A program made the translations under genes and the position numbers. Shown one piece after another: positions 3,801 through 21,171 of a stretch of DNA of 64,000 bases. Position 1 is the first letter of the stretch; each line of letters starts with the position of its first letter. Below the pieces are notes generated by a model. The model was not told the origin of the DNA. It did no database searches and worked only from the letters and a program-made list of their open reading frames with translations. Origin of the DNA: Minisyncoccota bacterium (GTDB lineage: Bacteria; Patescibacteriota; Minisyncoccia; Phycocordibacterales; JAACPR01); contig JBAYWG010000001.1 in the NCBI GenBank assembly GCA_041674225.1, positions 390,273-454,272 on the forward strand, given 5' to 3'.

Positions 3801-4685
3801 ATGAAAAAAATGAAAATAGTAACTCACGCTGGAAGCTTTCATTTGGATGACTTGTTTGCAATAGCAACTATTTCTTTAATTTATCCAGACATTGAGATTG
3901 TGCGTTCGAGAGATAAAAGTGAAGCGGCAAGCGCTGATTTTGTTGTGGATGTAGGAGACGTGAATGATACAGAAAAAAACAGATTTGATCATCATCAACC
4001 AGGTGGGGCAGGGGTTAGAGAAAATGGTGTTCCATATGCAAGCTTTGGTTTAGTTTGGAAAAAATTTGGAACTGAAGTTTCTGGCGGAGATGCTCGTGTA
4101 CAGGATTTGGTTGATAAAAAAATGGTTCAACCAATTGATGCTGCTGATAACGGTTTCAATATGTATCGTGAAACTAAATCAGGACTATCTCCTTATCTTC
4201 TAGACAACGCTTTCAAGGCTCTGACACCTACGTGGCGAGACGAAGGAACTGTAGATGACACTTTCACTAGAATTCTACCTTTAGCTCGAGAAATCTTATT
4301 AATGGAGATCAAAAAAGCTAAATATTTCTTTGAGGATACTGAAATTGTGAAAGAGGCTTATAAAAATGCGCCTGATAAAAGAATTATTGTTTTGGAACAT
4401 CCTTTGGCTTGGAAATCTGTTATCTCTAGAAAAAATGAACCAATTTATGTTATTCATCCAAATCAAATGACAGGGGAGTGGATTGTCGCTTGTGTGCGAA
4501 AGACCCCACGTTCTCATGAAAATAGAAAACTTTTGCCACAAGCGTGGGCAGGAAAAAGAAAAGAAGATTTGGAAAAAATCACGGGTGTAGAAGGTGCAGA
4601 GTCTTGTCATAACAAAAGATTTATCGCAACAGCGTGGAGTAAAGAAGCTGCGGTGAAATTGGCTGAGATTGCTGTGAAGAATTAA
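3801..4685 (+). CDS. MYG1/UPF0160 family metal-dependent hydrolase
   Basis: N-terminal THAGSFHLDD motif. Start placed at the ATG immediately after tRNA-Pro, because the ORF-track start at 3750 lies inside the tRNA. Confidence 0.7.
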   Translation: MKKMKIVTHAGSFHLDDLFAIATISLIYPDIEIVRSRDKSEAASADFVVDVGDVNDTEKNRFDHHQPGGAGVRENGVPYASFGLVWKKFGTEVSGGDARVQDLVDKKMVQPIDAADNGFNMYRETKSGLSPYLLDNAFKALTPTWRDEGTVDDTFTRILPLAREILLMEIKKAKYFFEDTEIVKEAYKNAPDKRIIVLEHPLAWKSVISRKNEPIYVIHPNQMTGEWIVACVRKTPRSHENRKLLPQAWAGKRKEDLEKITGVEGAESCHNKRFIATAWSKEAAVKLAEIAVKN

Positions 4686-7526: not shown

Positions 7527-7615
7527 GGTTTAACTTTCACTTATTGCCACATCTGTGTCAATCTGATAATCTCAATATTACAACAAATTTTGTTGTGTGT
7601 ATCGTATAGATCTTT

Positions 7616-10253: not shown

Positions 10254-11414
10254 TCAGTTAATCAACCAACTTAACGCCGGTTTCTTGTGGAATATTCTTT
10301 CTGCGATTACCGCATTAGTATATTCTTTGTCTTCGGTGACTTCTTGAATTATCTCTATCCAGTCTGGAATTTGCAATTCATGCTCCAGATTGGTTAGTTC
10401 TATTTCAAGCATCCCAATCTCAACACTCGGATCAGTACTTGTATTGGAGTTTTTGAAGACATCCAGTTCCAAATATTGATTTGCCCAAAGCATACAGTGT
10501 CGAGTTTTGTTTACCGGACATGTGTCTGGTTTAATCATTGAAGACATGAGCTCGAACTCACTTTCTCCGATGATTCTCTCAACTTCGAGTCTTTGGCCTG
10601 GGCCGTGATCGCGTTTTTCAGTCATGAAGTAGGTGTAGAAACCATCGTGACCGCGTTTGCGAATACGGATTTCCGCCTTATCACTTCCTGTTGTTAGATA
10701 AATCTGCTCGATGTCGATTGAGACAGCTTCCTTGGGAATGTTCATTGGATTGAACTTTACTAAGAATTTTCTTTCTCTTTCGACAGGAATCGGCACCCCA
10801 ATAACTGCACAAACTTCTTGATAAACTCGGTGGAGTTTTTCTTGAAAATCGGTACTGTTGTCGACGACTCTCATGTGAGGATGACCAACCCAGGCTTGCT
10901 GAGTTCTCTTATCAAGATCTCTCGCTTGTTGGGGAGTCTCGTGTCTCGCTGAATTGTTTGCCAGAGTGTAGAAATCCTCAGCACCTTCTGCGGCTGTGAC
11001 CATGTGAATGACTGCGTCATATCTCGCATGACTAGCACTCACTGGATTGAGTTCTCTTGTTTGCAGCAGAGACAAGTAGTCTTCTTTTTCCATGTATGCA
11101 CTCCCGTCGGGAATACCACGGTCGTAGATGACTACAATCTTTTGATCTGCTGGAAGATTTTTTGCAATCTCCAAAATGTTATTTTCGATGCTCAAACTTA
11201 TGTTGAGAATCGCATTTTGAAGCATGTCTCCCGAGATTGAATTTTTGCCTGGCATTACTCCAGCGTTGATACATAGGGTCGCCATCTCTGGGATGACAAA
11301 AACCACATGATTTTCAATCTCTTCAATTTTCTCTCTCAAGAAAGAGAGGCCACTAGACTTTCCTCCGCAAGGGCCACCGGTCAGGACTATTCGGTATATG
11401 TTTTTGGGTTGCAT
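10254..11414 (-). CDS. P-loop AAA-type ATPase fused to a C-terminal CYTH (triphosphate tunnel) domain
   Basis: Walker A TGGPCGGKSS at the N-terminus. The C-terminal half starts ERERKFLV and has the alternating acidic/basic strands of CYTH. Confidence 0.65.
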   Translation of the reverse strand: MQPKNIYRIVLTGGPCGGKSSGLSFLREKIEEIENHVVFVIPEMATLCINAGVMPGKNSISGDMLQNAILNISLSIENNILEIAKNLPADQKIVVIYDRGIPDGSAYMEKEDYLSLLQTRELNPVSASHARYDAVIHMVTAAEGAEDFYTLANNSARHETPQQARDLDKRTQQAWVGHPHMRVVDNSTDFQEKLHRVYQEVCAVIGVPIPVERERKFLVKFNPMNIPKEAVSIDIEQIYLTTGSDKAEIRIRKRGHDGFYTYFMTEKRDHGPGQRLEVERIIGESEFELMSSMIKPDTCPVNKTRHCMLWANQYLELDVFKNSNTSTDPSVEIGMLEIELTNLEHELQIPDWIEIIQEVTEDKEYTNAVIAERIFHKKPALSWLIN

Positions 11415-11530
11415 AGATTGGTTTAGTTGGTTGTGAATGAACTGCTACTCTTCACTGATTATGTTTAAAAGGTTCGTTGTTTTCTAGTCTTTCTGCGTTG
11501 AGTCAAATTTTTTAGACTAAAATGTCTAAA

Positions 11531-12202
11531 CTATTCTTCATCAGTTGTATTTAAAAAATATTCTGCAAAAAAGTGATCTTTCTTGTTTTCTTTAACAAGT
11601 TTTAATATCTTTTTCGCTCCAGGTAAAATGTTTTTGCTATCTATTTCATCAAATGTTCCCCAGAAGCATTCTCCAACTGTATTCCCGTCTTCTAATTCTC
11701 CAGTCACTTCTGTTCCAGAGAAGACATGGCAAAGAAGGTGTGTAACTAATTCTGTTTCATCGTGCACAGCAATATAAACATCGCCCCTGTGTTTTAGTTT
11801 TGCAGATAATCCAGATTTTTCTTTCAGTTCTCTTTCTGCCGAATCTTTTATTCTTTCCTCGAGGTGAATTTTCCCATATGGAAAAGAAACAAAATTAATA
11901 AAGGGCGCTCTTTTTTGACGGTAGAGTAAATACTTTCCATCTTTTTCAATTACCATTGATGTAACAATTTTGGGTTGAGTTCTTTCTTCAAATGTATCAA
12001 AAGACATCCTGCTGATTAGGTGTTTTCCTGCAGATGTCAGACTGTATGTTTTATCTTTTGAAATAATCAAACCAAGTTTTGTTAGGGAGTTTAGGTGGTA
12101 CACAAAAACATTTCCCTCGACTTCTTTATCTTTTAGATCTGAGTAACGGATCTTTTTCTGTAGAGAAAGTTTTTTAAGGATGTCTTTTTGAATTTCGTGC
12201 AT
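11531..12202 (-). CDS. Winged-helix + Nudix hydrolase domain protein
   Basis: Nudix box GKIHLEERIKDSAERELKEKSG, N-terminal HTH-like segment. Confidence 0.7.
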   Translation of the reverse strand: MHEIQKDILKKLSLQKKIRYSDLKDKEVEGNVFVYHLNSLTKLGLIISKDKTYSLTSAGKHLISRMSFDTFEERTQPKIVTSMVIEKDGKYLLYRQKRAPFINFVSFPYGKIHLEERIKDSAERELKEKSGLSAKLKHRGDVYIAVHDETELVTHLLCHVFSGTEVTGELEDGNTVGECFWGTFDEIDSKNILPGAKKILKLVKENKKDHFFAEYFLNTTDEE

Positions 12203-12348
12203 GGTGAAATATTAACATATAACAAATTAATTCTAAAAACTCACGATTTTGTATTATAAATAAAGATCATTTTGGCAAAGTTTGTGTGTAACAATTTAAT
12301 ACGGATTCTGTAATTAATTATTATTTTTGAGGGTTATTTGATACAATC

Positions 12349-13086
12349 TTGTTAATTATGAAAAATAAAATACTTGAGCAGATTGGTTTATCAAAGAATG
12401 AGAGTGAGATTTATTTAGCACTTTTAGATTTAGGACCTTCAAGTATTTCAAAAATCTCTGAGAAAACCGCCATCCACCGACCACTTATTTATAAAGCACT
12501 ACCTGAACTTTTGGAGAAAAAATTGGTTAGCCAAACTCAGAAAGGGAAAAATGTGCTTTATGTGGCGGAACCACCAAATAGATTAGAATCAATTTTTGAT
12601 GAATTAAAATATCAATTCTTTGAACTTTTACCTGATCTAGAAGACTCATACTCAAGCAACAATAAAAAACCGAAAATTAGATTTTTGGAAGGGAAGGATG
12701 GAACTAAAAGAGTTTTTGATGATGTTGTGAGAAGTTTGAATAAAGGAGATACTTTTTATAGATACACTTCAAACAAAGATGGAAAAGAGAAAAAAGATCG
12801 ATATGTTCCGAGAATTTATTGGACTATGCGTGACGCTAAAAAATTGGAGAGGCAAGTGATCACAAACGAGAAGACTGCAAAAGCAAAAATAGAAAAAATT
12901 GATAGATTTGTGAAAGGAATGCCAGAAGATTTTGGACCTTTTGAACACAACATTACAGAAATTATTTATGGAGACAGAGTTTCTTTTATAGACTACAACT
13001 CAGACACCGCGATGATTATTGAAAGCAAACCGATTGCTGAGTTTCAAAAACATATCTTCAAGACATTTTATAAGAAGTTAAGTTAA
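12349..13086 (+). CDS. TrmB-family transcriptional regulator (paralog of 7715-8467)
   Basis: LSKNESEIYLALLDLGPSSISKIS...LIYKALPELLEKKLV wHTH. Similar length and architecture to the first TrmB-like gene. Confidence 0.6.
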   Translation: MLIMKNKILEQIGLSKNESEIYLALLDLGPSSISKISEKTAIHRPLIYKALPELLEKKLVSQTQKGKNVLYVAEPPNRLESIFDELKYQFFELLPDLEDSYSSNNKKPKIRFLEGKDGTKRVFDDVVRSLNKGDTFYRYTSNKDGKEKKDRYVPRIYWTMRDAKKLERQVITNEKTAKAKIEKIDRFVKGMPEDFGPFEHNITEIIYGDRVSFIDYNSDTAMIIESKPIAEFQKHIFKTFYKKLS

Positions 13087-14436
13087 TTACTCGTGCCACC
13101 TTCGTTCTGCTCGAATTGGTGCATCTGCAACTAGTTTTATGCGAAGGTCTGAAGGAAGAAAATCAAGGGTGAATGATCTTCCTTCGATTACAATCTTGCT
13201 TTCAGAAGTGTCTCGGATTTTTGATATTTCCCTAGCTGAAAATTCTATAACTTCTTTCTGATATTTTTTTGCGATGTCAGGGATTTTATTTTCAACCCTG
13301 CTTTCTCGGAGTGCTTGTCCGTAAACTTTTTTGATATCTAGATTCGTGTGAAAGAGTCTTAATTCTCCTGATGTGCTCTTGTAGTACATGTTTTTGAAGA
13401 TATTTTTTGTGAATTTTATTTTTGCTAGGTTTAGTAAAGTGAGGTATCTGAAAATGTCTCCCATTGAGAAGATTTTTGCGTTTAGTTTTTTTGCCAATTC
13501 TTTTGTGGTTGAGCTTTTTCCGACTCCACTTTTTCCTTCTAGAGAAATTATTTTGGTCTCCTTTTTTATGTCAGTCTCGATTATTTTGATAACATTTTTT
13601 ATTCCAATTACTTTTCCTGTATCTACTGTGATTGTTTTCTTAGGTTTTTGTATTCTCAATCCTTTGTTTGAAAGATTTTCTTTATTTACTTTATCTATCT
13701 GATCATCTCTGTGATCTCTTTCAATTATTGAATGTAGTATTTCACTTACCCCATGTGATTTTATTCTATGAGTTATTTTCTCTTTTCCTATTTCTGAGAC
13801 CACGCAATCTTTTATTATTGTATTCAGTTCAGCTGTTTTAAATTCCGAGAAGTATTTGTCACCAAAATCTCCGAGACCAGGAACTATATAACCTTTTTCG
13901 TCTAAACATTTATCTAGTTGTCCGATTATTATTTTAACTTTTGGATAAAGAGTTAAGATTTTATTTACTCCCTCTGGTGAGGCTAAGATGTTTGCTACGA
14001 CTATTTTTTCTTCTGCGACATTTTTCTTTAAACATCTTTCGATTGCGTCGATAATAGTGTTTCCAGTTGCTAACATGGGATCAACTATGATGACAAAGTT
14101 GTTTTTGTTTATTTTTCCCTCTTCAAAATCAACCTCTGTTTCTAGTGTTTCCTCGTTTCGCTTTGAGCTTAGGTGGTAATAATTTTTTATTTTAAATTTC
14201 TTTAGGCTCGGGATAAAAGCGAGTGCAGATCTCCAGGGAAGAATAACGACCGTGTTATTTTTTTCTATATGATTTAAAGATTCTTTAATTATTTTGTCTG
14301 TAATTATTTCAGAATTTTCTCTAAAGATTTTTCCTTTGGTTTGTTCATGAAAAGATTTGTTGGGATATCCGGCTCTTAAAATTTTAAATGCGGTGTTGAA
14401 TTTTTTATCTGGAGTTACTATTTTTATTTTCTTCAT
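13087..14436 (-). CDS. Uracil phosphoribosyltransferase fused to cytidylate kinase
   Basis: N-terminal half has DPMLATGNT and YIVPGLGDFGDKYF (UPRT). C-terminal half has P-loop ISLEGKSGVGKSS and cmk-like sequence. Confidence 0.75.
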   Translation of the reverse strand: MKKIKIVTPDKKFNTAFKILRAGYPNKSFHEQTKGKIFRENSEIITDKIIKESLNHIEKNNTVVILPWRSALAFIPSLKKFKIKNYYHLSSKRNEETLETEVDFEEGKINKNNFVIIVDPMLATGNTIIDAIERCLKKNVAEEKIVVANILASPEGVNKILTLYPKVKIIIGQLDKCLDEKGYIVPGLGDFGDKYFSEFKTAELNTIIKDCVVSEIGKEKITHRIKSHGVSEILHSIIERDHRDDQIDKVNKENLSNKGLRIQKPKKTITVDTGKVIGIKNVIKIIETDIKKETKIISLEGKSGVGKSSTTKELAKKLNAKIFSMGDIFRYLTLLNLAKIKFTKNIFKNMYYKSTSGELRLFHTNLDIKKVYGQALRESRVENKIPDIAKKYQKEVIEFSAREISKIRDTSESKIVIEGRSFTLDFLPSDLRIKLVADAPIRAERRWHE

Positions 14437-14460
14437 TTAATTTTATTATAGTTTATTTTT

Positions 14461-14512
14461 TCCGTTTCGTCCTTTTGGACTCATCAGGCAAAGAACTTAC
14501 CTTGCGACAGTG
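14461..14512 (-). ncRNA. Hammerhead ribozyme, type III (HHR-1)
   Basis: Minus-strand read: CACUGUC|GCAAGG-UAAGUU-CUUUGC (stem I) CUGAUGAG UCC-AAAA-GGA (stem II) CGAAAC GGA. Full catalytic core, GUC cleavage triplet. Confidence 0.8.
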
Positions 14513-14581
14513 GACGGATGGAACGTGCATCCGTCAATTTGTTTCAGTTTCAGGAAGTTTTTTCTCCCTAGTGCGCCTCGA

Positions 14582-14962
14582 TTAGCCGTGGCCGATGACC
14601 GGGACGCGACCGATCTCCTCTCTCTCCTCTTGGGCTCGTTGCCTTTCGCGGGCTTCTTCGTGGCCGAAAGAGCGGAGATAACTTTCGTCATGCTCTCGCT
14701 GCTCTTGCTCGTAGGATGCCCGAAGCGGTGTTCGGATCAAGGATGAGAGTTCGTCTCTGACCTCTTTGGGCCATGATTTCCTGATCCGCAGGAGGTCGCC
14801 GATGAATCTCTCAGCGTCATTGATATCGAGGTGTCCTCGCATCATTCGGCAGAGGTCTTCGGAGGTGTTTGGGTGTTGTCTGTTGGTCGGCATGGGTCGT
14901 TTGGGGCGTGGAGTTGGTGGGGACTGTTTCGTCTTGCTTCTACACTTGTAGAAGAGACTCAT
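14582..14962 (-). CDS. Hypothetical small charged protein between two hammerhead ribozymes (coding status uncertain)
   Basis: 126-aa ORF. Its 5' end overlaps HHR-2, so the true start is probably an internal Met. Confidence 0.3.
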   Translation of the reverse strand: MSLFYKCRSKTKQSPPTPRPKRPMPTNRQHPNTSEDLCRMMRGHLDINDAERFIGDLLRIRKSWPKEVRDELSSLIRTPLRASYEQEQREHDESYLRSFGHEEARERQRAQEEREEIGRVPVIGHG

Positions 14963-14990
14963 CAGGCGAGATACTTATCTCGCGACAGAA
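14921..14990 (-). ncRNA. Hammerhead ribozyme, type III (HHR-2)
   Basis: Minus-strand read: UUCUGUC|GCGAGAU-AAGU-AUCUCGC CUGAUGAG UCU-CUUCUAC-AAGU-GUAGAAG-CA-AGA CGAAAC AGUCC. Stem III is CUG/CAG. Confidence 0.8.
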
Positions 14991-15036
14991 GACGGATGGA
15001 ACGTTCATCCGTCAATTTGGTTCAGTTTCAGGAAGT

Positions 15037-15360
15037 TTATTCTTCCTCTGCGCCGGTGCGAATGTACCCTCTTCGCTCGAGTTCCTTCAGGCAGATATGC
15101 ATTTCCCTCGGACTACCTGCTTGAAACAGGACTCGCATTTGTTTGCGGGTTAGTCGGGCAGGGTTTGCTAGATTTGCTTCCGCTCTTTTCATTAGGCGAT
15201 TGAAGGCTTTCTCGCAAGCTGGCGGTGCGTGGCGGTCTTTGGCCTTTGGTGGTTCGGTTTGCTCGCGCATCTTGGCTTTTTGTGCGGAGATTATGCCGTT
15301 GTAGCGTGGTACGCAGGTGCAGGATGTGGTCATGGGTAGTTTGGGGTTTGGGGTTAACAA
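15037..15360 (-). CDS. Hypothetical small protein, possible HTH at C-terminus (coding status uncertain)
   Basis: 107-aa ORF upstream of HHR-2 on the minus strand. Confidence 0.3.
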   Translation of the reverse strand: MLTPNPKLPMTTSCTCVPRYNGIISAQKAKMREQTEPPKAKDRHAPPACEKAFNRLMKRAEANLANPARLTRKQMRVLFQAGSPREMHICLKELERRGYIRTGAEEE

Positions 15361-15747
15361 AGAACAAATTTATTTTTTTGTAAATTGTAAGGTCTAATCC
15401 AACATATTTATAGTCTAGTCAAATTGAGTCAATTGTTTTTATCAGAAGTGGTATTTTTATGTGCAGGGGGTTCAGGCAATATTATAAGTAAAGTATTTGA
15501 AAATATTTTTTATTTATGGTCAATGTGTACAGAGATGGGAGCGAGGTGAATTTAGTGGCTTTAAATATAGCTATTATTTGATTTTTCAGTGTAATTTTTA
15601 GTTTCAAAAAAACTTTTTTATACAACTTTTTTAAAAAAGTAGCAAAAAAATATAAATTCTGTCTAAAATTTGAAACATTATAAAAATGTAAATATGGCTT
15701 AAAATATGATAAAAAATGATATCTAAAATTAGAAACGACAAAAACGC

Positions 15748-15776
15748 TTGACAAAAAATGAAAATGGGTATATACT
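15748..15776 (+). promoter_or_regulatory. Consensus sigma70-type promoter (TTGACA-17 nt-TATACT)
   Basis: Perfect -35 TTGACA at 15748-15753, 17-nt spacer, -10 TATACT at 15771-15776, in an AT-rich region with upstream direct repeats. Confidence 0.6.
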
Positions 15777-15837
15777 ACTTTCAAACCTAAAACAAGCACA
15801 CAACATTCAACAACCAGCCAATAGAAAGGAGGAGGGC

Positions 15838-15888
15838 ATGATTTACCAAATCTACCCCGATGGGACCATTGTGGTCGTCCGCCGATAG
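15838..15888 (+). CDS. Candidate 16-aa leader peptide (MIYQIYPDGTIVVVRR)
   Basis: ATG 5 nt downstream of the strong SD AAGGAGGAGGG, about 55 nt from the predicted TSS. Stop TAG. Confidence 0.3.
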   Translation: MIYQIYPDGTIVVVRR

Positions 15889-16342
15889 GCCGGAATAGTG
15901 GGTTCGTTCAAACCGAATCTGCTCCCTTAAAATAAGATCTTCCACACGGTCTTATTTTAAGGTAGCGGAAGTTACCTAGTTCTTTAAAAGATAAAAGATA
16001 GCCTGCACCTTAATCAGAGTATTGCTAGTACTTTGATTAAGGCGCAGGACATTAACAGTTGTTTGGCGGCCTAAAAATAGGGAAACAAAGTTTCCCCTTT
16101 CGGCTGATCACCGATTGAACTACCCAGGAGGTTTGTGTCATGTTTGAACACGAGCAAGAAAGGTGGAGGAAGATGTTCACAATTTAAAGAACATCTGGAA
16201 GGTTGGTAACCGTAAACTGTTGTGGTGCATGTAAGGGTGCCACGATTGTCCTTTGGACAATCAAAAGTCAATGCCTAATCAATATTAGGTACACACGTCT
16301 ACACGAAGTGATGGAATGCTTAACCAGCTCCATGCACTTCGT

Positions 16343-16396
16343 CCTGTCGCGAGATGCATGTCTCGCCTGATGAGTCCAAAAGGACGAAACAGTTGC
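16343..16396 (+). ncRNA. Hammerhead ribozyme, type III (HHR-3)
   Basis: CCUGUC|GCGAGA-UGCAUG-UCUCGC CUGAUGAG UCC-AAAA-GGA CGAAAC AGUUGC. Shares stem I with HHR-2 and stem II with HHR-1. Confidence 0.85.
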
Positions 16397-16524
16397 ATTT
16401 TTAAAATATAAAATCTTTGTACTGCATTCCGTGTTCAATTCTTTTGGAAGATAAACACCACTCAATTTAATGTGGCCCCCAAAATTGGACACAGTGCTCG
16501 GTATAAAGATTTATACCAACAGTT

Positions 16525-16540
16525 CTTTAAATAAAAATAA
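16525..16540 (+). repeat. 16-nt direct repeat CTTTAAATAAAAATAA (copy 1 of 3)
   Basis: Exact 16-mer, also present at 17307 and 17776. Confidence 0.7.
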
Positions 16541-17252
16541 TCATTTTCTTGGAACTCCGCAGTCACAAAATTGAAACTAAAATTTGGTTTTAATTTTGTG
16601 GCTGTGGAGGGCCCGATAGACTCGCAAGAGTTGATAGGATAGTTGCCAAAAGACAATTACTATCCGGGTGTGTAAAAACATCTAAATCTCCATCTTGAAA
16701 CTAGTGTGCTCCGGGAGGGGTATCCAAACATTAGTGTAGAGAGCTGTAGAAGTCTGCAAACTTCGAAAGCAGTTAGAAGCGTTCAGGGCTGCAACCCAAA
16801 AACGTGGAAAGCCAAGTGTGCATCAGGCACGGCTCGCAAGGCTGTGTGCAGTGCACCCCTCTTTCTTGGCATGTCTTACAACTATATAAAGTTGCTAACG
16901 GCATAAAGAGGGAAATCAATCATCGTAGGGCTGTGCCACAATACCAGAGAATTGGGAAAACTCTGGGTGAAAAGTGGAAGAGGAACGCCACCTCAAATGG
17001 AAAAAGCCCCGGCCAGGGAAATATCCAAGAAGATGATTGAGGATAAAGGGTGCGCACACACCCTAAAACAATTCGGTGAGATTCCGAAATGTGTGGTCAA
17101 AAGACAGCTACCGTTAGCAGCGGTGGTCGGCTCGCAAGAGTATTGCTGTCATTGAGAGTATGTGAGCTTCGGCTTCTGACCTTTGTACTCTCTCCCAAAT
17201 TTTTCGGTTCGGAACTAGGTTCAACCGGGTTGTAAGTTATCCAAAAACTTTC

Positions 17253-17302
17253 TCTGTCTCGAAATGTAATTTCGACTGATGAGCTCAAAAGAGCGAAACA
17301 GA
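17253..17302 (+). ncRNA. Hammerhead ribozyme, type III (HHR-4)
   Basis: UCUGUC|UCGAAAU-GUA-AUUUCGA CUGAUGAG CUC-AAAA-GAG CGAAAC AGA. Stem III is UCUG/CAGA. Confidence 0.85.
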
Positions 17303-17306
17303 TGAT

Positions 17307-17322
17307 CTTTAAATAAAAATAA
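17307..17322 (+). repeat. 16-nt direct repeat CTTTAAATAAAAATAA (copy 2 of 3)
   Basis: Exact copy, immediately 3' of HHR-4. Confidence 0.7.
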
Positions 17323-17775
17323 ATTCTCTGCACCGAATTGCATTTAAGTTTTTTAAATTCAGTTCGGTGCAGGGAGTTGTTGCGACCCCATAGTACGTGA
17401 GTCAAAGAGGGATAAATGATACCCTCGCGAAAAGATCAGCTGCAACATGCTAAAAGAGCTTAGGAATTTATGCTCGATCGAAAAATTTCCAATCATATGA
17501 CCAAGGTCGAAAGACGCTGTTACATCTCCCAGAAGAGATGGTGCGACGAGGCAATCTAGAACGCCTTTTCAATCGCATTACCTAATGCCCTTCAACCGGC
17601 GGTTTATATTACTCGAGATTAGATCTCTTGCGGATATAGATTGGTTAACAAACGACAGGTTAGGTATCTCGTGTTGAATCGGGACATCATCGCAACAATT
17701 TTTCGCACTTTTTCAAAAAAAGTGCACTTCATTGAGCTTACGAAATTTGATATTCGCAAGTTCATAGAGTTTGTA

Positions 17776-17791
17776 CTTTAAATAAAAATAA
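17776..17791 (+). repeat. 16-nt direct repeat CTTTAAATAAAAATAA (copy 3 of 3)
   Basis: Exact copy, immediately 5' of element X copy B. Confidence 0.7.
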
Positions 17792-17793
17792 AA

Positions 17794-17895
17794 GTAGACA
17801 TAGCCAAAGGAATTTTTAAATAGAATTTCTTTGGCTATGTCTACTGAGTGGTAGATGAGCTGCACATTGGTCCGTTTGTGAAAAACAAGGACTCG
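17794..17895 (+). ncRNA. Structured leader element X (copy B)
   Basis: GTAGACATAGCCA...TGGCTATGTCTAC hairpin plus UGAGUGGUAGAU...GUGAAAAACAAGGACUCG. Paralog of 8960-9062. Confidence 0.5.
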
Positions 17896-17924
17896 TCTGA
17901 CGAACGTATCGTCACCCCAGACTT

Positions 17925-18245
17925 ATGAGCAAGCACCACTATCGTAAACCTGCTGCTAAACCTGTGTGTCCTTGCGGACATGCTACGACCGATGCTCTCT
18001 GGGTGTTAGACATCCAAGGAGACCGACCTATCAGGGTTCATCGGCCATGCGGTCAGGCGATCTTGAAGAACGCGCCGAAAGGAACGCAGGGCAAAATTCG
18101 TCCTTCCCGCGAGCTCAAAGAGATTCACAAGAAGCAGAGGTACGAGCGCGAGCTCTCCTCCAGTTTCTGGAACTCCAAGCTTGAAGGTGTCAAAGGCAAG
18201 TCTTTACAAGACTTGGTGAAGACCGCTCCCGACAGGCAGTCCTGA
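17925..18245 (+). CDS. Hypothetical basic Cys-containing protein (106 aa)
   Basis: ORF directly after element X. CPCGH...PCGQ suggests a small zinc-binding fold. Confidence 0.4.
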   Translation: MSKHHYRKPAAKPVCPCGHATTDALWVLDIQGDRPIRVHRPCGQAILKNAPKGTQGKIRPSRELKEIHKKQRYERELSSSFWNSKLEGVKGKSLQDLVKTAPDRQS

Positions 18246-18381
18246 TGGATTGGTTGAAACAAGTTTCTCTAGCTCTTTTCCTTTCAAAAAAGAGTCGCAC
18301 TGTCAGCGGATAATAATCAACCCCGCTAGACTAAGAGTTTGCAGATTTCTTAAATCTGCACTTACTTGAGCTTGCAACAAG

Positions 18382-18780
18382 ATGTTGTTGGTTCATAGAG
18401 TGTTAGTTCTTTCAAAAACAAAACAAAAAAATATGATCATCTCAAATGCATTTTCACTCAACATGTTTGAAACCCTCGAAGGAGAAATTCTCAGCAGAGA
18501 GCTTAGTGTCACGGAAATCTCGAAAGAGCAGGCTGTTGAACTTTTAACAGACCCTGAGCTTGGAGGAGTAGATTCAGCTGTTGGACATGCCGACACTGCT
18601 GCGCTTTTTTCTACGATTCTCGGAATCGAGATCCCGTGTGAGCGCAAGACGATTCAACTCAACCCTGAAAATGGTTGGCTTATTGTCGGGCAGTATCATG
18701 GACCACGTCTTGAAGAAGGAAGTACTACACTTCCGGAGGGTGCCAGTATTCGCTGGTACGAAATCGAGATTAAGTCTTGA
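18382..18780 (+). CDS. Hypothetical protein (132 aa; may start at internal Met 18439)
   Basis: ORF downstream of element Y copy B. Confidence 0.45.
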   Translation: MLLVHRVLVLSKTKQKNMIISNAFSLNMFETLEGEILSRELSVTEISKEQAVELLTDPELGGVDSAVGHADTAALFSTILGIEIPCERKTIQLNPENGWLIVGQYHGPRLEEGSTTLPEGASIRWYEIEIKS

Positions 18781-18789
18781 GAGATTATT

Positions 18790-19077
18790 ATGAATTTGGA
18801 AGAAATTTCAAAGCTCTATGATGATCCTCAAGATGCAATGAGGATTTTACAAACATCTGTTGAAGGAAAACACAGATATTTCCGAAACGAGAAAGCTTTC
18901 GAAAGGTTTCTGAGAAAAGAACAAGACTCATATCAGCGTCGCAAGACTGCTGGTGTTTCAAGTCCGGTTTCACTTCTTGAGAATACTCTCGACTCTTCTC
19001 CTTTAAGGAACGAAACTTTGCCCCCGGGCAGTAATGGTTTCAATGTGATTATCTGGCAGGAAACTTCCAAAGGATAA
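18790..19077 (+). CDS. Hypothetical protein (95 aa)
   Basis: ORF tightly following the previous one (10-nt gap), followed by a terminator. Confidence 0.45.
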   Translation: MNLEEISKLYDDPQDAMRILQTSVEGKHRYFRNEKAFERFLRKEQDSYQRRKTAGVSSPVSLLENTLDSSPLRNETLPPGSNGFNVIIWQETSKG

Positions 19078-19085
19078 TCATTGAA

Positions 19086-19112
19086 CCCTGCAATAAAATG
19101 TAGGGTTTTTTC
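19086..19112 (+). terminator. Rho-independent terminator
   Basis: CCCUGCA-AUAAAA-UGUAGGG hairpin followed by a T6-7 run, 9 nt after the ORF stop. Confidence 0.55.
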
Positions 19113-19127
19113 TTTAAATTTATACAA

Positions 19128-19158
19128 AGCAAAAAGCCGGCGGAGCCGGCTTTTTGCT
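19128..19158. terminator. Bidirectional Rho-independent terminator
   Basis: GCAAAAAGCCGGC-GGA-GCCGGCTTTTTGC, a perfect hairpin with A/T runs on both sides. It lies downstream of hup on the minus strand. Confidence 0.7.
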
Positions 19159-19229
19159 TATTTACTTAAAATTCTGTGAAGATAAATTTAATAACTTAAA
19201 ATTTAACCGTTTTGAACTTGTACGTATAT

Positions 19230-19502
19230 TTATTTAACAGCTTCTTTCAAAGCTTTTGCAGCTCTAAACTTTGGAGTTTTCATAGCTGGAACTTTGATAG
19301 CTTCACCTGTTCTTGGGTTTCTAGCTGTTCGGGCTGCTCGTGTTTTAGCTTCAAAAATACCGAATCCTGCAACTGAAACTTCTTCTCCAGATGTTAAAGA
19401 TTTGATAATTGAATCAAAAACAGCGTCAACAACCTTTTCTGCTTCTACCTTTGTTGTACCTAATACTTCATGTACCTTTTCTACAATGGCTGCTTTATTC
19501 AT
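19230..19502 (-). CDS. hup: DNA-binding protein HU
   Basis: 90 aa. MNKAAIVEKV...GFGIFEAKTRAARTARNPRTGEAIKVPA matches the HU/IHF fold signature. Confidence 0.9.
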   Translation of the reverse strand: MNKAAIVEKVHEVLGTTKVEAEKVVDAVFDSIIKSLTSGEEVSVAGFGIFEAKTRAARTARNPRTGEAIKVPAMKTPKFRAAKALKEAVK

Positions 19503-19659
19503 ATATGTTGGTTGTATTAATCAATCCGTAAAAAACGGGTTTGTTAACCGATAACCGCTTAAAACGACTTTGTTATTAAGCTGGAAATAATTATATAAAA
19601 CAAGGGTTTTATAGCAATAGAGCCACGAGTACACCTTGTTTATAACTTTTTGTCAAAAA

Positions 19660-21171
19660 TTATCTTGCAACTTCAATAACTCTGTTTTCTCGTATCACTG
19701 TAACCTTGATTTCCCCAGGGTATTTTAGGTCTTTTTCTATTTTCAGGGCTATATTCCTAGCTAAATTACGCGCTTCTAAATCTGAAATTTCTTCAGGATT
19801 TACAAAAATTCTTATTTCACGTCCTGCTTGTAGGGCGTAAGATTTTTCTACTCCTTTAAATTCATTGGCTATAGCTTCCAAATCATTTAAGCGTTTTAAG
19901 TAGTTTTCTGTGTTATCTCTTCTGGCTCCTGGACGACTTCCAGAAATAGAATCCGCAACTTGAACGATAATTGATTCAGGTGTTTCATAAGGGTATTCTT
20001 CGTGATGTGCTTGCATAGCTTTTACAACAGATTCATCTGCTCCAAATTTTTGTAAAATTCTGCGCCCGATTTCTACGTGAGTTCCGGCAATTTCGTGATC
20101 AACTGCTTTTCCAATATCGTGAAGAAGTGCACCAGCTTTGGCTACTCGCACATCTGCACCTATTTCTTCAGCAATCATTCCTGCAATGTGAGACATTTCG
20201 ATTGAGTGTTGCAAAACATTGTGACCATAACTCGTTCGAAAGTGAAGTCTTCCTAAAATAGAAATAATTCGTGGGTCTAAATTAAAAATCCCACATTCAT
20301 AAGCGGCTTGTTCTCCTTTTTCAATGATTATTTTATTTATAGATTTCTTTGCTTTTTCAACGCATTCTTCGATTTTTGCAGGTTGAATTCGTCCATCTAG
20401 AACTAATTGTTCCAAAGCTATTTTTGCAATTTCACGACGAACTGGATCAAAAGAAGAAATTGAGATTGTCGCTGGTGTATCATCAATAATTAATTCAACA
20501 CCAGTAGCTCTTTCAAAACTTTTTATGTTTCGACCTTCTTTTCCAATGATTTTTCCTTTTATTTCGTCAGAAGGAAGAGTGACACTGCTAGAAAAAATAT
20601 CTGAAGATACAGAGTTCCCAAGTCGGTGGATAGCTGTGGTTATAATATCGCGAGCTTTTGCTTCCAATTTTTCTTTTCCACTGATATCCATTTTTTGTAA
20701 ACGAATCAAAATATCTTCGGATTGTTCTTTTTCAAGATTTTCAATTAGTTCTTTTTTAGCATCTTCTTTTGAAATTTCTGCAATTTTTTCTATAGAATCA
20801 ATTCTTTCTTTTTCAAGTTTCTTTAATCTGTCTTCAATTTCTTCAATTTGAGTCTCTTTTATTTTAATCTCTTCCGACAATTCATCCAAATCAGTCTGTC
20901 TTTTGTCTAGATAACTTTCTTTATTTATCAGTCTAGCTTCTGTTTTCTCTACTTTTTCTTCAAATTCAATAGCTGTGTCTTTGGCTTCTTTAATAATATT
21001 CTGAGCTTCCTCTCGTGCTGAGACCATCATTTCCTTTATTTCTAGCTCCATTGAGCCTCTTTTACCCAGAGAAATTATGAATCGCAAAAACCATCCCAGA
21101 GCTATTCCGGCTAATCCTGCTGCCATTGCTATTATTAATACTATTAGTAGAGACATGATTTTTAGCGCCAA
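19660..21171 (-). CDS. rny: Ribonuclease Y
   Basis: N-terminal TM helix, coiled-coil, KH domain (GKIIGKEGRNIK) and HD domain (HDIGK), 503 aa. Confidence 0.9.
   Translation of the reverse strand: MALKIMSLLIVLIIAMAAGLAGIALGWFLRFIISLGKRGSMELEIKEMMVSAREEAQNIIKEAKDTAIEFEEKVEKTEARLINKESYLDKRQTDLDELSEEIKIKETQIEEIEDRLKKLEKERIDSIEKIAEISKEDAKKELIENLEKEQSEDILIRLQKMDISGKEKLEAKARDIITTAIHRLGNSVSSDIFSSSVTLPSDEIKGKIIGKEGRNIKSFERATGVELIIDDTPATISISSFDPVRREIAKIALEQLVLDGRIQPAKIEECVEKAKKSINKIIIEKGEQAAYECGIFNLDPRIISILGRLHFRTSYGHNVLQHSIEMSHIAGMIAEEIGADVRVAKAGALLHDIGKAVDHEIAGTHVEIGRRILQKFGADESVVKAMQAHHEEYPYETPESIIVQVADSISGSRPGARRDNTENYLKRLNDLEAIANEFKGVEKSYALQAGREIRIFVNPEEISDLEARNLARNIALKIEKDLKYPGEIKVTVIRENRVIEVAR

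Follow-up and report, generated by a model that had tools for sequence, protein, structure and literature searches.

The window (the whole 64,000-nt stretch of DNA analyzed here) contains a GC-rich island of ∼4.6 kb, at about 14460–19100, in which GC content is 45–58% as compared with about 30–35% in the flanks. The island holds four hammerhead ribozymes (two per strand), ∼2 kb of conserved non-coding RNA, and a DUF1874/B116-like gene (Table 1). Hammerhead 2 forms its left edge; 25 nt separate the last base of this ribozyme from the UPRTase/cytidylate-kinase ATG (14436). The plus-strand hammerheads 3 and 4 were not mentioned in an earlier reading of the same DNA (hereafter the sequence-only reading). 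A strong plus-strand promoter (TTGACA-17-TATACT) is present at 15748–15776. On the minus strand upstream of ORF A, no convincing sigma-70 promoter was found; the candidates (e.g., 15704–15677) are weak, with a top score of 9/12, and lie in the AT-rich region.

Table 1. Positions of the island features in the window
Feature	Position	Strand	Remarks
Hammerhead 2	14462..14510	-	type III, short stem II; predicted cleavage after C14506; RF00008 match 14459-14513, 35.0 bits, E 1.1e-4
Hairpin B	14513..14535	-	8 bp; ΔG -11.4; 2-nt gap to stem III
Tail B	14536..14570	-	UAGGGAGAAAAAACUUCCUGAAACUGAAACAAAUU
ORF B	14582..14893	-	103 aa from ATG at 14893; ORF-126 (from ATG at 14962) of the sequence-only reading
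Leader repeat copy B	14886..14915	-	CCACGCCCCAAACGACCC + AUG CCG ACC of ORF B; repeat D6
Hammerhead 1	14924..14988	-	type III, long stem II; predicted cleavage after C14984; core parsed; RF00008 match 14921-14991, 35.2 bits, E 9.7e-5
Hairpin A	14991..15013	-	8 bp, GACGGAUGAACGUUCCAUCCGUC; ΔG -12.6; 2-nt gap to 5' strand of stem III
Tail A	15014..15048	-	conserved 3'-UTR element, repeat D1; small hairpin GGAAG/CUUCC, then UGAAACUGAACCAAAUU
ORF A	15037..15333	-	98 aa from ATG at 15333; ORF-107 (from TTG at 15360) of the sequence-only reading
Leader repeat copy A	15326..15355	-	CCCCAAACCCCAAACUACCC + AUG and first codons of ORF A; no Shine-Dalgarno; repeat D6
AT-rich divergent control region	15361..15790		GC 21-29%; between two transcription units; 95% identical to L027
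Hairpin + hammerhead 3	16303..16395	+	predicted cleavage after C16348; Rfam 40.4 bits, E 3.2e-6
Hammerhead 4	17251..17304	+	predicted cleavage after C17258; Rfam 43.7 bits, E 3.7e-7; no abutting hairpin
Structured non-coding RNA	17305..17775	+	starts directly 3' of hammerhead 4; homologues in L029, L030, L031, L032
ORF C	17925-18245	+	homologues P0004, P0005
ORF D	18434-18780	+	DUF1874/STIV B116-like; Pfam PF08960 at 7e-10; phrog_5063; PADLOC Csx16 at 3e-9
ORF E	18790-19077	+	small ORF, far island end (C, D, and E span 17925..19077)

The RNAalifold consensus of the structured non-coding RNA (ncRNA) comprises 61 pairs, 14 of them with compensatory changes. No Rfam family matched this RNA, and an Rfam search of 12000–20000 with E values up to 10 returned no credible family except the hammerheads. 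Recoded genes in the plus-strand segment 15790–17920 were considered and rejected: all frames on both strands contain many stops of all three types, and with any one stop codon read through, the longest open stretch was 687 nt, on the opposite strand. There is no suppressor tRNA in the window. Only ORF D matched the PADLOC defence-system models (as Csx16), and it also matches AFV3-109 and STIV B116 in the PDB. Scans of viral contigs for the tail, the ncRNA block, and the long-stem-II hammerhead variant gave 0 matches. The island looks derived from a mobile element and may be anti-defence in nature. An XRE-type repressor is encoded in one related island, L029.

Repeated modules and the small ORFs they follow

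The sequence-only reading had described a near-identical block duplicated about 480 nt apart on the minus strand, and the duplication is real. Exact alignment gave a direct repeat of 92 nt per copy (14478–14569 and 14956–15047) that is 87% identical, ungapped, and offset by 478 nt, with a BLASTN core of 71 nt at 88.7%. The 32-mer AACTTCCTGAAACTGAAMCAAATTGACGGATG has exactly two occurrences in the window, where shuffles lead one to expect 0.00. Along the minus strand, each copy consists of a tail, an 8-bp hairpin, a 2-nt spacer, and a type III hammerhead, in that order; the hairpin sequence is GACGGAUG.ACGUUCCAUCCGUC in both copies (15013–14991 and 14535–14513). The blocks trail two small minus-strand ORFs, A and B, which are unrelated in sequence and have no similarity as proteins. 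A second direct repeat, D6, is formed by the CA-rich leader CCCCAAAC.ACCCATG, whose copies (15326–15355 and 14886–14915) are 80% identical and 440 nt apart. Since the leader is repeated too, it is the punctuation that was duplicated, not the whole unit.

Neither hairpin qualifies as an intrinsic terminator on the minus strand, where both lack a U-tract (the next letters are UUCUGUCGCG and CACUGUCGCA); a terminator scan flagged them only as read on the plus strand. Nor does the minus strand have a predicted intrinsic terminator between ORF A and ORF B. Translation of the tail as a C-terminal extension was also considered, as one tail frame reads (R)EK(K/Q)LPETETN*. This frame follows a TAA stop in frame with the upstream ORF in window copy B and in the related islands L027 and L029, but not in window copy A or L030. 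The independent in-frame cases numbered two of four, against a chance expectation of 1/3, and the spacer substitutions are mostly non-synonymous, so the extension was rejected.

The blocks had been placed behind ORF-107 and ORF-126. The coordinates agree with this placement once the starts are corrected: translation is likely to begin at ATG 15333 in ORF A and at ATG 14893 in ORF B, the latter matching the gene call in L027. An overlap between ORF-126 and a hammerhead, noted in the same reading as a reason for doubt, does exist with the ATG at 14962 (the ribozyme concerned is the upstream one, 14921–14991) and vanishes because the likely start is 14893. The question raised there of whether the two small ORFs are real has a different answer for each. 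ORF B has a 90% identical homologue (P0002), and its comparison with L027 gives a dN/dS of 0.18, with 14 of 24 differences at codon position 3 and no indels. By these sequence measures, ORF B is a real protein-coding gene under purifying selection. It belongs to no Pfam, PHROG, or PADLOC family. For ORF A, a single-sequence AF2 model has three helices and a pLDDT of 59, which is too low for a fold search; the putative ORF A is possibly an orphan gene for a small helical DNA-binding protein. Searching 5.8 billion proteins with k-mer seeds found none but ORF A itself, and a full HMMER search against 1.84 billion representatives returned ORF A and one low-complexity-like match (E 2.6e-4). Looking up P0001 by exact sequence yielded no contig. 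A weak LexA/winged-helix hint had an E value of 0.11. Having no homologue, ORF A is unconfirmed as a coding sequence, and one of the two 'genes' may be non-coding.

Hammerhead cores and abutting hairpins

Across the 64 kb there are only four occurrences of the pattern CTGATGAG..CGAAAC, where 0.02 are expected. The hammerhead core was defined as C3-U4-G5-A6-N7-G8-A9, G12-A13-A14, an A15.1-U16.1 pair, and a cleavage triplet N-U-H, and it is complete in all four window hammerheads (CUGAUGAG...CGAAAC plus GUC). Their scores (43.7, 40.4, 35.2, and 35.0 bits) are under the curated gathering score of Rfam RF00008 (48.5 bits) because of the short stem III, whose outer three model pairs are unpaired in three of the four, including both minus-strand copies. 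A type III architecture fits: stems I and II are closed by loops, stem III is open, and the stems covary. In a 16-sequence alignment of the subtype, 98.3% of cells pair and 11 of the 15 pairs vary on both sides, a level of covariation that was reached by 0 of 500 shuffles. Judged from sequence, the window ribozymes look functional, with cleavage itself a prediction. The island hammerheads match RF00008 in the core CUGAUGA, the GAAA, the GUC triplet, the closed stems I and II, the open stem III, and the covarying stems, and differ from it in a stem III of only 4–5 bp. Nearly all of them have a common stem III, CUGUC...ACAG; hammerhead 2 has ACGG.

At hammerhead 3 (16341–16395), the hairpin (16303–16342; ΔG -16.8) has a gap of 2 to stem III. 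The recurrence of such hairpins was surveyed in 45 non-redundant type III hammerheads from this and related islands and from phage contigs, a hairpin being counted as abutting if it had a ΔG of -7 or lower and ended 0–3 nt before stem III. Abutting hairpins were present in 30 of the 45 (25 of 36 by upstream-sequence cluster), as compared with 11.1% when positions were drawn at random from those loci (p about 1e-16 to 1e-18). They are missing from about a third of the set, including hammerhead 4. Stem III is 4–5 bp in most of the surveyed hammerheads. In the phage contigs, two to four such modules lie between co-directional genes, L010 having four. The general pattern is that of a stable hairpin immediately 5' of a minimal stem III in this hammerhead subtype; it predicts upstream RNAs that end with the hairpin plus 5–8 nt and a cyclic phosphate.

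Conservation and turnover of the cassettes

The processing reading depended on the duplicated block being found in related islands, and it is present in L027, L029, and L030. The close relative L027 has a leader, ORF B, the tail, the hairpin, and a hammerhead, and it lacks exactly 440 nt, corresponding to ORF A, tail, hairpin, hammerhead 1, and leader. The breakpoints of this indel are inside the leader repeat. Cassettes behave as units: a whole cassette was gained or lost between close relatives. Comparison of the window with L027 also revealed compensatory changes, one from A-U to G-C in stem I of hammerhead 2 and two pair changes in stem II of hammerhead 3. The segment 14480–14559 (tail, hairpin, and the part of hammerhead 2 retained in L027) is 96% identical to L027, whereas identity is 82% in the stop-to-tail spacer and ORF B has a pS of 0.20. 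On these figures, the module is under constraint, its conservation being about five times that of synonymous sites.

A distant genome bin has four hammerheads in L029 and six in L030, all co-oriented with small ORFs. The same 33-nt tail precedes three of these 10 hammerheads, and the CA-rich leader with an AUG CCN ACC (MPT...) start recurs in the L029 and L030 cassettes. Cassettes in relatives vary in length and content. The hairpin sequence varies among islands and its position is fixed. The only metagenome match to the tail, L028, has no ribozyme and was set aside as a chance match.

Proposed ribozyme punctuation and competing readings

We consider it probable, at roughly two chances in three, that the repeated blocks are RNA punctuation modules that process polycistronic transcripts of a mobile-element-derived accessory locus. 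From 5' to 3', a module would comprise a 3'-UTR tail, a GC-rich hairpin, a minimal hammerhead with a stem III of 4–5 bp, a CA-rich leader, and the AUG of the next gene, and it would separate small cargo genes within a longer minus-strand transcript of the GC-rich accessory island. Each ribozyme is predicted to cleave during its own transcription, after C14984 and after C14506. The upstream message would then end with the hairpin plus 7 nt and a 2',3'-cyclic phosphate; so short an overhang, following a stable stem, should be a poor substrate for 3' exonucleases. The downstream message would carry a 5'-OH, with the folded ribozyme body first and then the unstructured leader. The abutting hairpin may stack on the short stem III and aid folding, and the shortness of this stem may let the products separate once cleaved. 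The net result would be the conversion of co-transcribed cassettes into independent mRNAs with defined and protected ends, the last ribozyme splitting the island transcript from the downstream host gene. The sequence-only reading is supported in part. Its main proposal, that hammerheads mature a polycistronic RNA into units whose 3' ends are capped by hairpins, is the best supported explanation: the module occurs in related islands, its stems show compensatory changes, it is constrained, and the abutting hairpin recurs. Minus-strand transcription, cleavage in vivo, and a protective role of the hairpin are what we infer beyond this. The hairpin-ribozyme module also precedes plus-strand non-coding segments (hammerhead 3), so it is not specific to mRNAs, and 3'-end protection alone does not explain the near-invariance of the tail across distant genomes.

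The hairpin could be mainly a structural helper that stacks coaxially on the 4–5-bp stem III and prevents misfolding of the ribozyme with upstream ORF sequence, 3'-end protection being a side effect. This is possible but doubtful, and it is compatible with the punctuation reading. Both the close spacing in the survey (0–3 nt from stem III in 30 of 45, with stem III 4–5 bp in most) and the use of the module where there is no upstream ORF, as at hammerhead 3, are in its favor. Hammerhead 4 and about a third of the subtype are nevertheless hairpin-less, yet their cores are intact and conserved; spacers of 1–3 nt, which are not ideal for stacking, are as common as 0; and stacking is beyond the reach of secondary-structure prediction. 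A further role has been considered for the tail, as a regulatory site that pairs with the hammerhead-flanked ncRNA of the opposite strand and couples it to the fate of cassette mRNAs. Across all island transcripts, the tail is predicted to pair best with the most conserved ncRNA block, at a ΔG of -24 to -26 in the window as compared with -19.4 ± 1.9 for shuffled tails, and at -26.4 as compared with -22.0 ± 2.1 in bin-301 (12 contiguous bp; 0 of 40 shuffles as good). However, the z-scores are only about -2, and a stable intramolecular hairpin (-33 kcal/mol) already occupies the target block. Because tail and block are both invariant, they do not lend themselves to a covariation test. We regard this added layer as unlikely. 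A wider proposal incorporates it: the island would be a new kind of ribozyme-punctuated cassette system in which genes and long structured ncRNAs are freed by near-identical hammerheads with a minimal stem III, the common stem III lets any released RNA dock on any ribozyme body for circularization or RNA-level shuffling, and the invariant 33-nt tail pairs with the new structured ncRNA to control the cassettes, these being small fast-turnover genes, possibly anti-defence, beside a DUF1874/AcrIII-1-family gene. This proposal as a whole is, in our estimation, improbable.

The other explanation offered in the sequence-only reading, a tandem duplication of a replicon-like unit of ∼500 nt, fared poorly. 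Retrozymes and viroid-like circular RNAs have units of roughly 0.5–1 kb bounded by type III hammerheads, and hammerhead cleavage produces ligatable ends, a 5'-OH and a 2',3'-cyclic phosphate. The island units share the type III boundaries, the ligatable ends, and the pairing of ends through stem III: the near-common stem would allow the two ends of a unit to meet, the 3' end docking on the ribozyme body that forms the 5' end, and the MFE fold of the 478-nt unit closes its ends through stem III. Excised units might therefore be circularized, by the reverse reaction or by an RtcB-type ligase, into circular, mobile, or replicating RNAs. Several observations argue against this. Only punctuation is repeated (92 nt and 30 nt); the units carry unrelated protein-coding cargo, and their lengths and contents vary among relatives. 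For the L027 indel, a DNA-level event is indicated by breakpoints that fall in the leader repeat instead of at cleavage sites. Long LTR-like repeats are absent, the 478-nt unit has a branched MFE fold (z-score -3.4) rather than a rod-like one, and no reverse transcriptase or polymerase family was found when the five small ORFs of the island and three flanking genes were scanned with Pfam. Circles and spliced products were sought from bacterial clusters by Perreault et al., and none was seen (PMC3088659). Circularization is thus distinctly improbable. We also weighed the possibility that the block has no function at the RNA level and is instead a DNA repeat that is selfish or prone to recombination (such as a miniature mobile repeat or gene-conversion tract). 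The tail is nearly identical across genomes whose neighboring TrmB-like proteins are 31% identical, and a whole cassette differs between close relatives, both of which such a repeat would accommodate. It is highly improbable, given that the hammerhead stems vary by compensatory substitutions, that the hairpin changes in sequence while keeping its position, and that the blocks are always on the strand of the flanking ORFs and between them.

Ribozyme punctuation of this kind goes back to Perreault et al. 2011; what refines it in the island is the presence of the tail, leader, and abutting hairpin. Clustered hammerheads in prophages flank single genes or short gene blocks, and were proposed to cut long transcripts into gene-length mRNAs (PMC3088659; PMC6765202); cleavage in vitro was shown for three prophage clusters (PMC3088659). 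The cellular role of bacterial and phage hammerheads is still largely undefined (PMC6765202). Like those clusters, the island has several hammerheads a few hundred nt apart on the strand of small variable genes; the window, L029, L030, and the phage contig L010 each have at least two within a few kb between co-oriented genes. Unlike them, its module adds the 33-nt tail, the abutting hairpin, the minimal stem III, and the Shine-Dalgarno-less leader; an upstream hairpin is not mentioned in the 2011 study (PMC3088659). The host also differs, being an AT-rich uncultured bacterium, and the island ribozymes also bound long non-coding segments. A search of the literature on hammerheads in Patescibacteria or in anti-CRISPR loci found nothing relevant.

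In the early genes of phage T7, RNase III sites cut a polycistronic transcript, and the upstream mRNAs keep a stabilizing 3' hairpin. The island module has in common with these sites a cut between genes that leaves a 3' hairpin on the upstream mRNA, but the cut is predicted to be made by the RNA itself, beside the hairpin, whereas T7 relies on a host enzyme acting within it; the island ends would also differ in carrying a 2',3'-cyclic phosphate and a 5'-OH. In integron arrays, small unrelated promoterless ORFs are separated by attC, with an integrase adjacent. The island resembles such arrays in having unrelated small ORFs set apart by a conserved structured element, and in gaining or losing entire cassettes between close relatives. 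It differs in that the inter-cassette element is a ribozyme module and the breakpoints are in a short leader repeat; among the ORFs at 11000–21000 there is no integrase, nor any phage structural gene.

With two cassettes and two ribozymes, and with a close relative that naturally carries a single cassette, the locus offers a compact testable case; further leads are the conserved tail and the ribozyme-flanked structured ncRNA in its vicinity. If the punctuation reading is confirmed, mobile elements would be able to make discrete stable messages without host RNases or terminators, and the modules would be natural parts for insulating genes in synthetic operons. RiboJ, a synthetic insulator composed of a hammerhead and a hairpin, defines the 5' end of a message independently of upstream context. 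Both place a self-cleaving hammerhead between genetic parts, but the RiboJ hairpin is downstream of the ribozyme, whereas the island hairpin is upstream of the cleavage site and would stay with the upstream RNA.

The duplicated module and its ribozymes

The minus strand carries a 92-nt direct repeat whose copies are 87% identical and offset by 478 nt, much as the sequence-only reading had described it (an almost identical block in two copies about 480 nt apart). BLASTN places the core of the block at 71 nt and 88.7%, and one 32-nt piece occurs twice in the window where no occurrence is expected. In each copy, a tail (the first half of which could fold into a small GGGAG/CUUCC hairpin) leads into a hairpin and a type III hammerhead. 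A second repeat, a 30-nt leader with CCCCAAAC.ACCCATG, was missed by that reading; its copies are 80% identical and lie 440 nt apart. The leader and the tail-hairpin-ribozyme are all that the two units share; the proteins of ORF A and ORF B, the small ORFs followed by hammerheads 1 and 2, respectively, are unrelated. It is the punctuation that is duplicated, rather than the roughly 500-nt unit whose tandem duplication had been offered as an alternative.

All four hammerheads of the window score below the Rfam RF00008 gathering score of 48.5; hammerheads 1 and 2 fall short because stem III of the model lacks its outer three pairs in them. The pattern CTGATGAG..CGAAAC occurs 4 times in 64 kb (0.02 expected), two of these being the plus-strand hammerheads 3 and 4. 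A covariation alignment was assembled from 16 hammerheads of the subtype, drawn from the window, its relatives, and phage contigs. Standard pairs fill 98.3% of the alignment cells, 11 of the 15 pairs have changed on both sides, and none of 500 shuffles matched the observed values. Sliding the structure by 1-3 columns collapses pairing to ~40%. Between the window and L027 (a contig from a close relative), an A-U pair in stem I of hammerhead 2 becomes G-C, and UCC/GGA in stem II of hammerhead 3 becomes CUC/GAG. The identification of these elements as ribozymes is well supported. Cleavage is predicted after C14984 and C14506 on the minus strand, which would release a 478-nt middle RNA, and after C16348 and C17258 on the plus strand.

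It had been unclear whether the two small ORFs were real, because the second seemed to overlap a hammerhead. The overlap disappears when the ATG at 14893 is taken as the start. ORF B has one homologue (P0002, 90% identity). It differs from the L027 copy by 14 synonymous and 10 non-synonymous changes without indels, with 14 of the 24 differences in codon position 3 and a dN/dS of 0.18. It is a real gene, with no family match in Pfam, PHROG or PADLOC. ORF A was not borne out in this way: neither of two large protein searches returned a homologue, the winged-helix hint is weak (E 0.11), and the three-helix model is of low confidence.

Features of the module, the island and related contigs (window positions unless a contig is named)
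Feature	Position	Strand	Remark
Repeated block	14478-14569; 14956-15047	minus	92 nt
Tail	5'-most part of each copy	minus	UAGGGAGAAAAAACUUCCUGAAACUGAAACAAAUU in copy B
Hairpin	after tail	minus	8 bp, GACGGAUG.ACGUUCCAUCCGUC
Spacer	between hairpin and hammerhead	minus	two bases
Type III hammerhead	3' end of each copy	minus	Rfam RF00008
Leader repeat	15326-15355; 14886-14915	minus	30 nt
Hammerhead 1	14921-14991	minus	Rfam RF00008, 35.2 bits, E 9.7e-5
Hammerhead 2	14459-14513	minus	Rfam RF00008, 35.0 bits, E 1.1e-4
Hammerhead 3	16341-16395	plus	40.4 bits
Hammerhead 4	17251-17304	plus	43.7 bits
ORF A	15037-15333	minus	98 aa, predicted
ORF B	14582-14893	minus	103 aa from internal ATG
ORF B synonymous sites		minus	pS 0.20 vs L027
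Tail, hairpin and retained part of hammerhead 2	14480-14559	minus	96% identity to L027
Stop codon-to-tail spacer		minus	82% identity to L027
Non-coding plus-strand segments		plus	94-97% identity to L027
UPRTase/cytidylate-kinase fusion gene	13087-14436	minus	host-like
AT-rich region	15361-15790		between minus-strand cassettes and plus-strand unit
Promoter	15748-15776	plus	near-consensus
Structured ncRNA	17305-17775; L029 1-545; L030 1222-640; L031 32-478	plus (L030, minus)	homologues
ORF D	18434-18780	plus	DUF1874/STIV B116/AFV3-109 family
L010 hairpin-hammerhead modules	176-218; 546-588; 1679-1722; 3816-3858		viral contig

Conservation in related islands and viral contigs

The searches recovered only four relatives of the island, of which L031 and L032 cover the plus-strand part alone. 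The repeated block, whose absence from related islands had been named as a refutation, is present in L027, L029 and L030. At 2.4 kb and ~95% identity to the window, contig L027 has both plus-strand hammerheads, the control region and one minus-strand cassette (leader, ORF B, tail, hairpin and hammerhead). It is without exactly 440 nt, comprising ORF A, its tail and hairpin, hammerhead 1 and a leader. The breakpoints fall in the leader repeat, so that gain or loss of whole cassettes has taken place at the DNA level between close relatives. The segment identities to L027 (see the table) show that the module is under constraint.

L029 and L030 belong to a distant bin, 'uncultured bacterium Loc090907-8-6m_bin-301', whose neighbouring TrmB-like protein is only 31% identical to that of the window. 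They contain four and six type III hammerheads, respectively, all between co-oriented small ORFs. The same 33-nt tail precedes 3 of these 10 with two different hairpins, one of which has A-U in place of a G-C pair in the window. In several cassettes, a CA-rich leader that lacks a Shine-Dalgarno sequence leads into an AUG CCN ACC (MPT...) start. Within the L030 array, between ORFs of 58 and 141 aa, lies a twister-P1-like match (7533-7601, minus strand; E 3.6e-9) whose 51.5 bits are below the gathering score of 67.2; such mixed ribozyme classes fit the known co-localisation of self-cleaving ribozymes. Short public assemblies break in or beside hammerhead cores (both ends of L027, 5' ends of L031 and L032), probably because near-identical ribozyme copies act as assembly repeats. 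Metagenome assemblies may thus fragment islands of this kind systematically.

Viral contigs were scanned with a pattern that left the sequence upstream of the cleavage site unspecified. This gave 26 loci; in several of them, two to four hammerheads separate co-directional genes. Pooled with the island copies, these yielded 45 non-redundant ribozymes. An abutting hairpin (dG <= -7 kcal/mol, last pair 0-3 nt from the 5' strand of stem III) is present in 30 of the 45, compared with 11.1% at random positions in the same loci (binomial p ~1e-18), and in 25/36 after clustering of the upstream sequences at 70% identity (p ~2e-16). By this survey, the abutting hairpin is a general feature of the subtype. 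Stem III is limited to 4-5 bp in most of the 45, and in all copies that were parsed correctly. On the transcribed strand the hairpins have no U-tract behind them and are therefore not terminators. Viral contigs L010 and L018 have four co-oriented hairpin-plus-hammerhead modules between genes, with a common hairpin core, GUGUCUUCAAAGACAC, and, in most, a GGAAACCA leader, a sharing that parallels the conservation of tail and leader in the window.

The tail-hairpin-hammerhead feature is real and well conserved. Its kind, clustered hammerheads flanking genes in mobile-element DNA, is already known. What is added here is a defined composite module and the recurrent abutting hairpin, seemingly undescribed before; an upstream hairpin is not mentioned by Perreault et al. 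(2011), and no description was found in the other literature searched, though one may exist elsewhere.

Proposed transcript punctuation and competing explanations

RNase III punctuates the early mRNA of phage T7, and synthetic ribozyme insulators exist; the predicted arrangement resembles both in function. Ribozyme punctuation of the transcript is the best-supported reading, with steps taken from hammerhead chemistry and inference. The hammerhead would cleave during transcription. The upstream RNA would end in a stable hairpin, 5-8 nt and a 2',3'-cyclic phosphate, and should resist 3' exonucleases; the downstream RNA would carry a 5'-OH and, ahead of the unstructured leader, the folded ribozyme body. 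A minimal stem III would favour product release, and the adjacent hairpin may compensate for it by stacking on stem III. Perreault et al. (2011; PMC3088659) proposed the same function for clustered prophage hammerheads; three of the clusters cleaved in vitro in their work, and neither circles nor spliced products were seen. In a later review, the biology is still given as unresolved (PMC6765202).

That the block instead bounds a replicon or circular RNA is disfavoured. Nearly all island ribozymes do have the same stem III, and the MFE fold brings the two ends of the 478-nt unit together, pairing the 3' end with the ribozyme body at the 5' end, but that fold is branched, the cargo is unrelated, unit sizes vary, the cassette indel arose at the level of DNA, and no polymerase family turned up when the small island ORFs were scanned against Pfam. 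Both the compensatory changes and the constancy of the blocks in position and strand contradict a functionless DNA repeat.

Alongside punctuation, an extra regulatory layer added by the tail is possible. The tail (14536-14570 and 15014-15048, minus strand) shows complementarity to the plus-strand ncRNA at the most conserved block of that RNA (17355-17390, UUCGGUGCAGGGAGUUGUUGCGACCCC); among island transcripts this is the best predicted duplex of the tail in both the window and bin-301. In the window the duplex has a predicted dG of -24 to -26 (shuffled tails, -19.4 ± 1.9); in bin-301 the same site gives -26.4 with 12 contiguous bp, and 0 of 40 shuffles was as good. The z-scores, however, are only about -2.

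The island and its plus-strand RNA

The two cassettes are at the left edge of an island richer in GC (~14460-19100; 45-58% GC, against ~30-35% in the flanks and 36% in the whole window). The ATG of the UPRTase/cytidylate-kinase fusion gene is 25 nt past the end of hammerhead 2 (gap 14437-14461), and island transcripts that read out would give this gene a ribozyme-defined 5' end. The plus-strand unit has a near-consensus promoter; no convincing one was found for the minus strand. ORF D matches its family in Pfam (7e-10) and phrog_5063, PADLOC Csx16 (3e-9) and the PDB entries for AFV3-109 and B116, and has the conserved GHxxTA motif. The viral anti-CRISPR ring nuclease AcrIII-1 belongs to this family. 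ORF D thereby hints that the island is a mobile-element locus with an anti-defence role. Neither an integrase nor a phage structural gene was found among the island-region ORFs.

No frame of the plus strand from 15790 to 17920 (~2.1 kb) offers a credible ORF, and allowing readthrough of any one stop codon does not change this. Identity to L027 over this stretch is 94-97%, while ORF B differs from its L027 copy at 20% of synonymous sites. Cleavage of the stretch by hammerheads 3 and 4 is predicted to yield fragments of roughly 565, 910 and 660 nt, and three small ORFs (C, D and E) lie at the end of the unit. A structured ncRNA starts directly after hammerhead 4; its L030 homologue has hammerheads on both flanks. 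The RNAalifold consensus of four homologues has 61 pairs, 14 with compensatory changes. It includes a P1 hairpin that bears a variable insert, and a multi-helix domain closed by the long-range helix GUUGCGA/UCGCAAC. This RNA is more conserved than the adjoining ORF C (63% aa identity in L031) and matches no Rfam family.

Three exact plus-strand copies of CTTTAAATAAAAATAA (16525-16540, 17307-17322 and 17776-17791) are each followed by a long hairpin (16555-16609, 17322-17378 and 17793-17845). On the minus strand they resemble a terminator, with a hairpin and then a T-tract. The copy after hammerhead 4 is kept in L031 and slightly altered in bin-301; that at 16525 is absent from L027 through an 18-nt indel. 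Just upstream of the hammerhead 3 hairpin, 16240-16302 (plus strand) is a replacement hot spot, 49% identical to L027 between flanks of ~94-97%. A second Shine-Dalgarno sequence with a mini-ORF, at ~16141, is not conserved. At the 5' end of the plus-strand transcript, a 16-codon ORF, MIYQIYPDGTIVVVRR (15838-15888), follows a strong AGGAGG Shine-Dalgarno sequence and is kept in L027 with one synonymous change, an I-to-V substitution and an in-frame 3-nt insertion.
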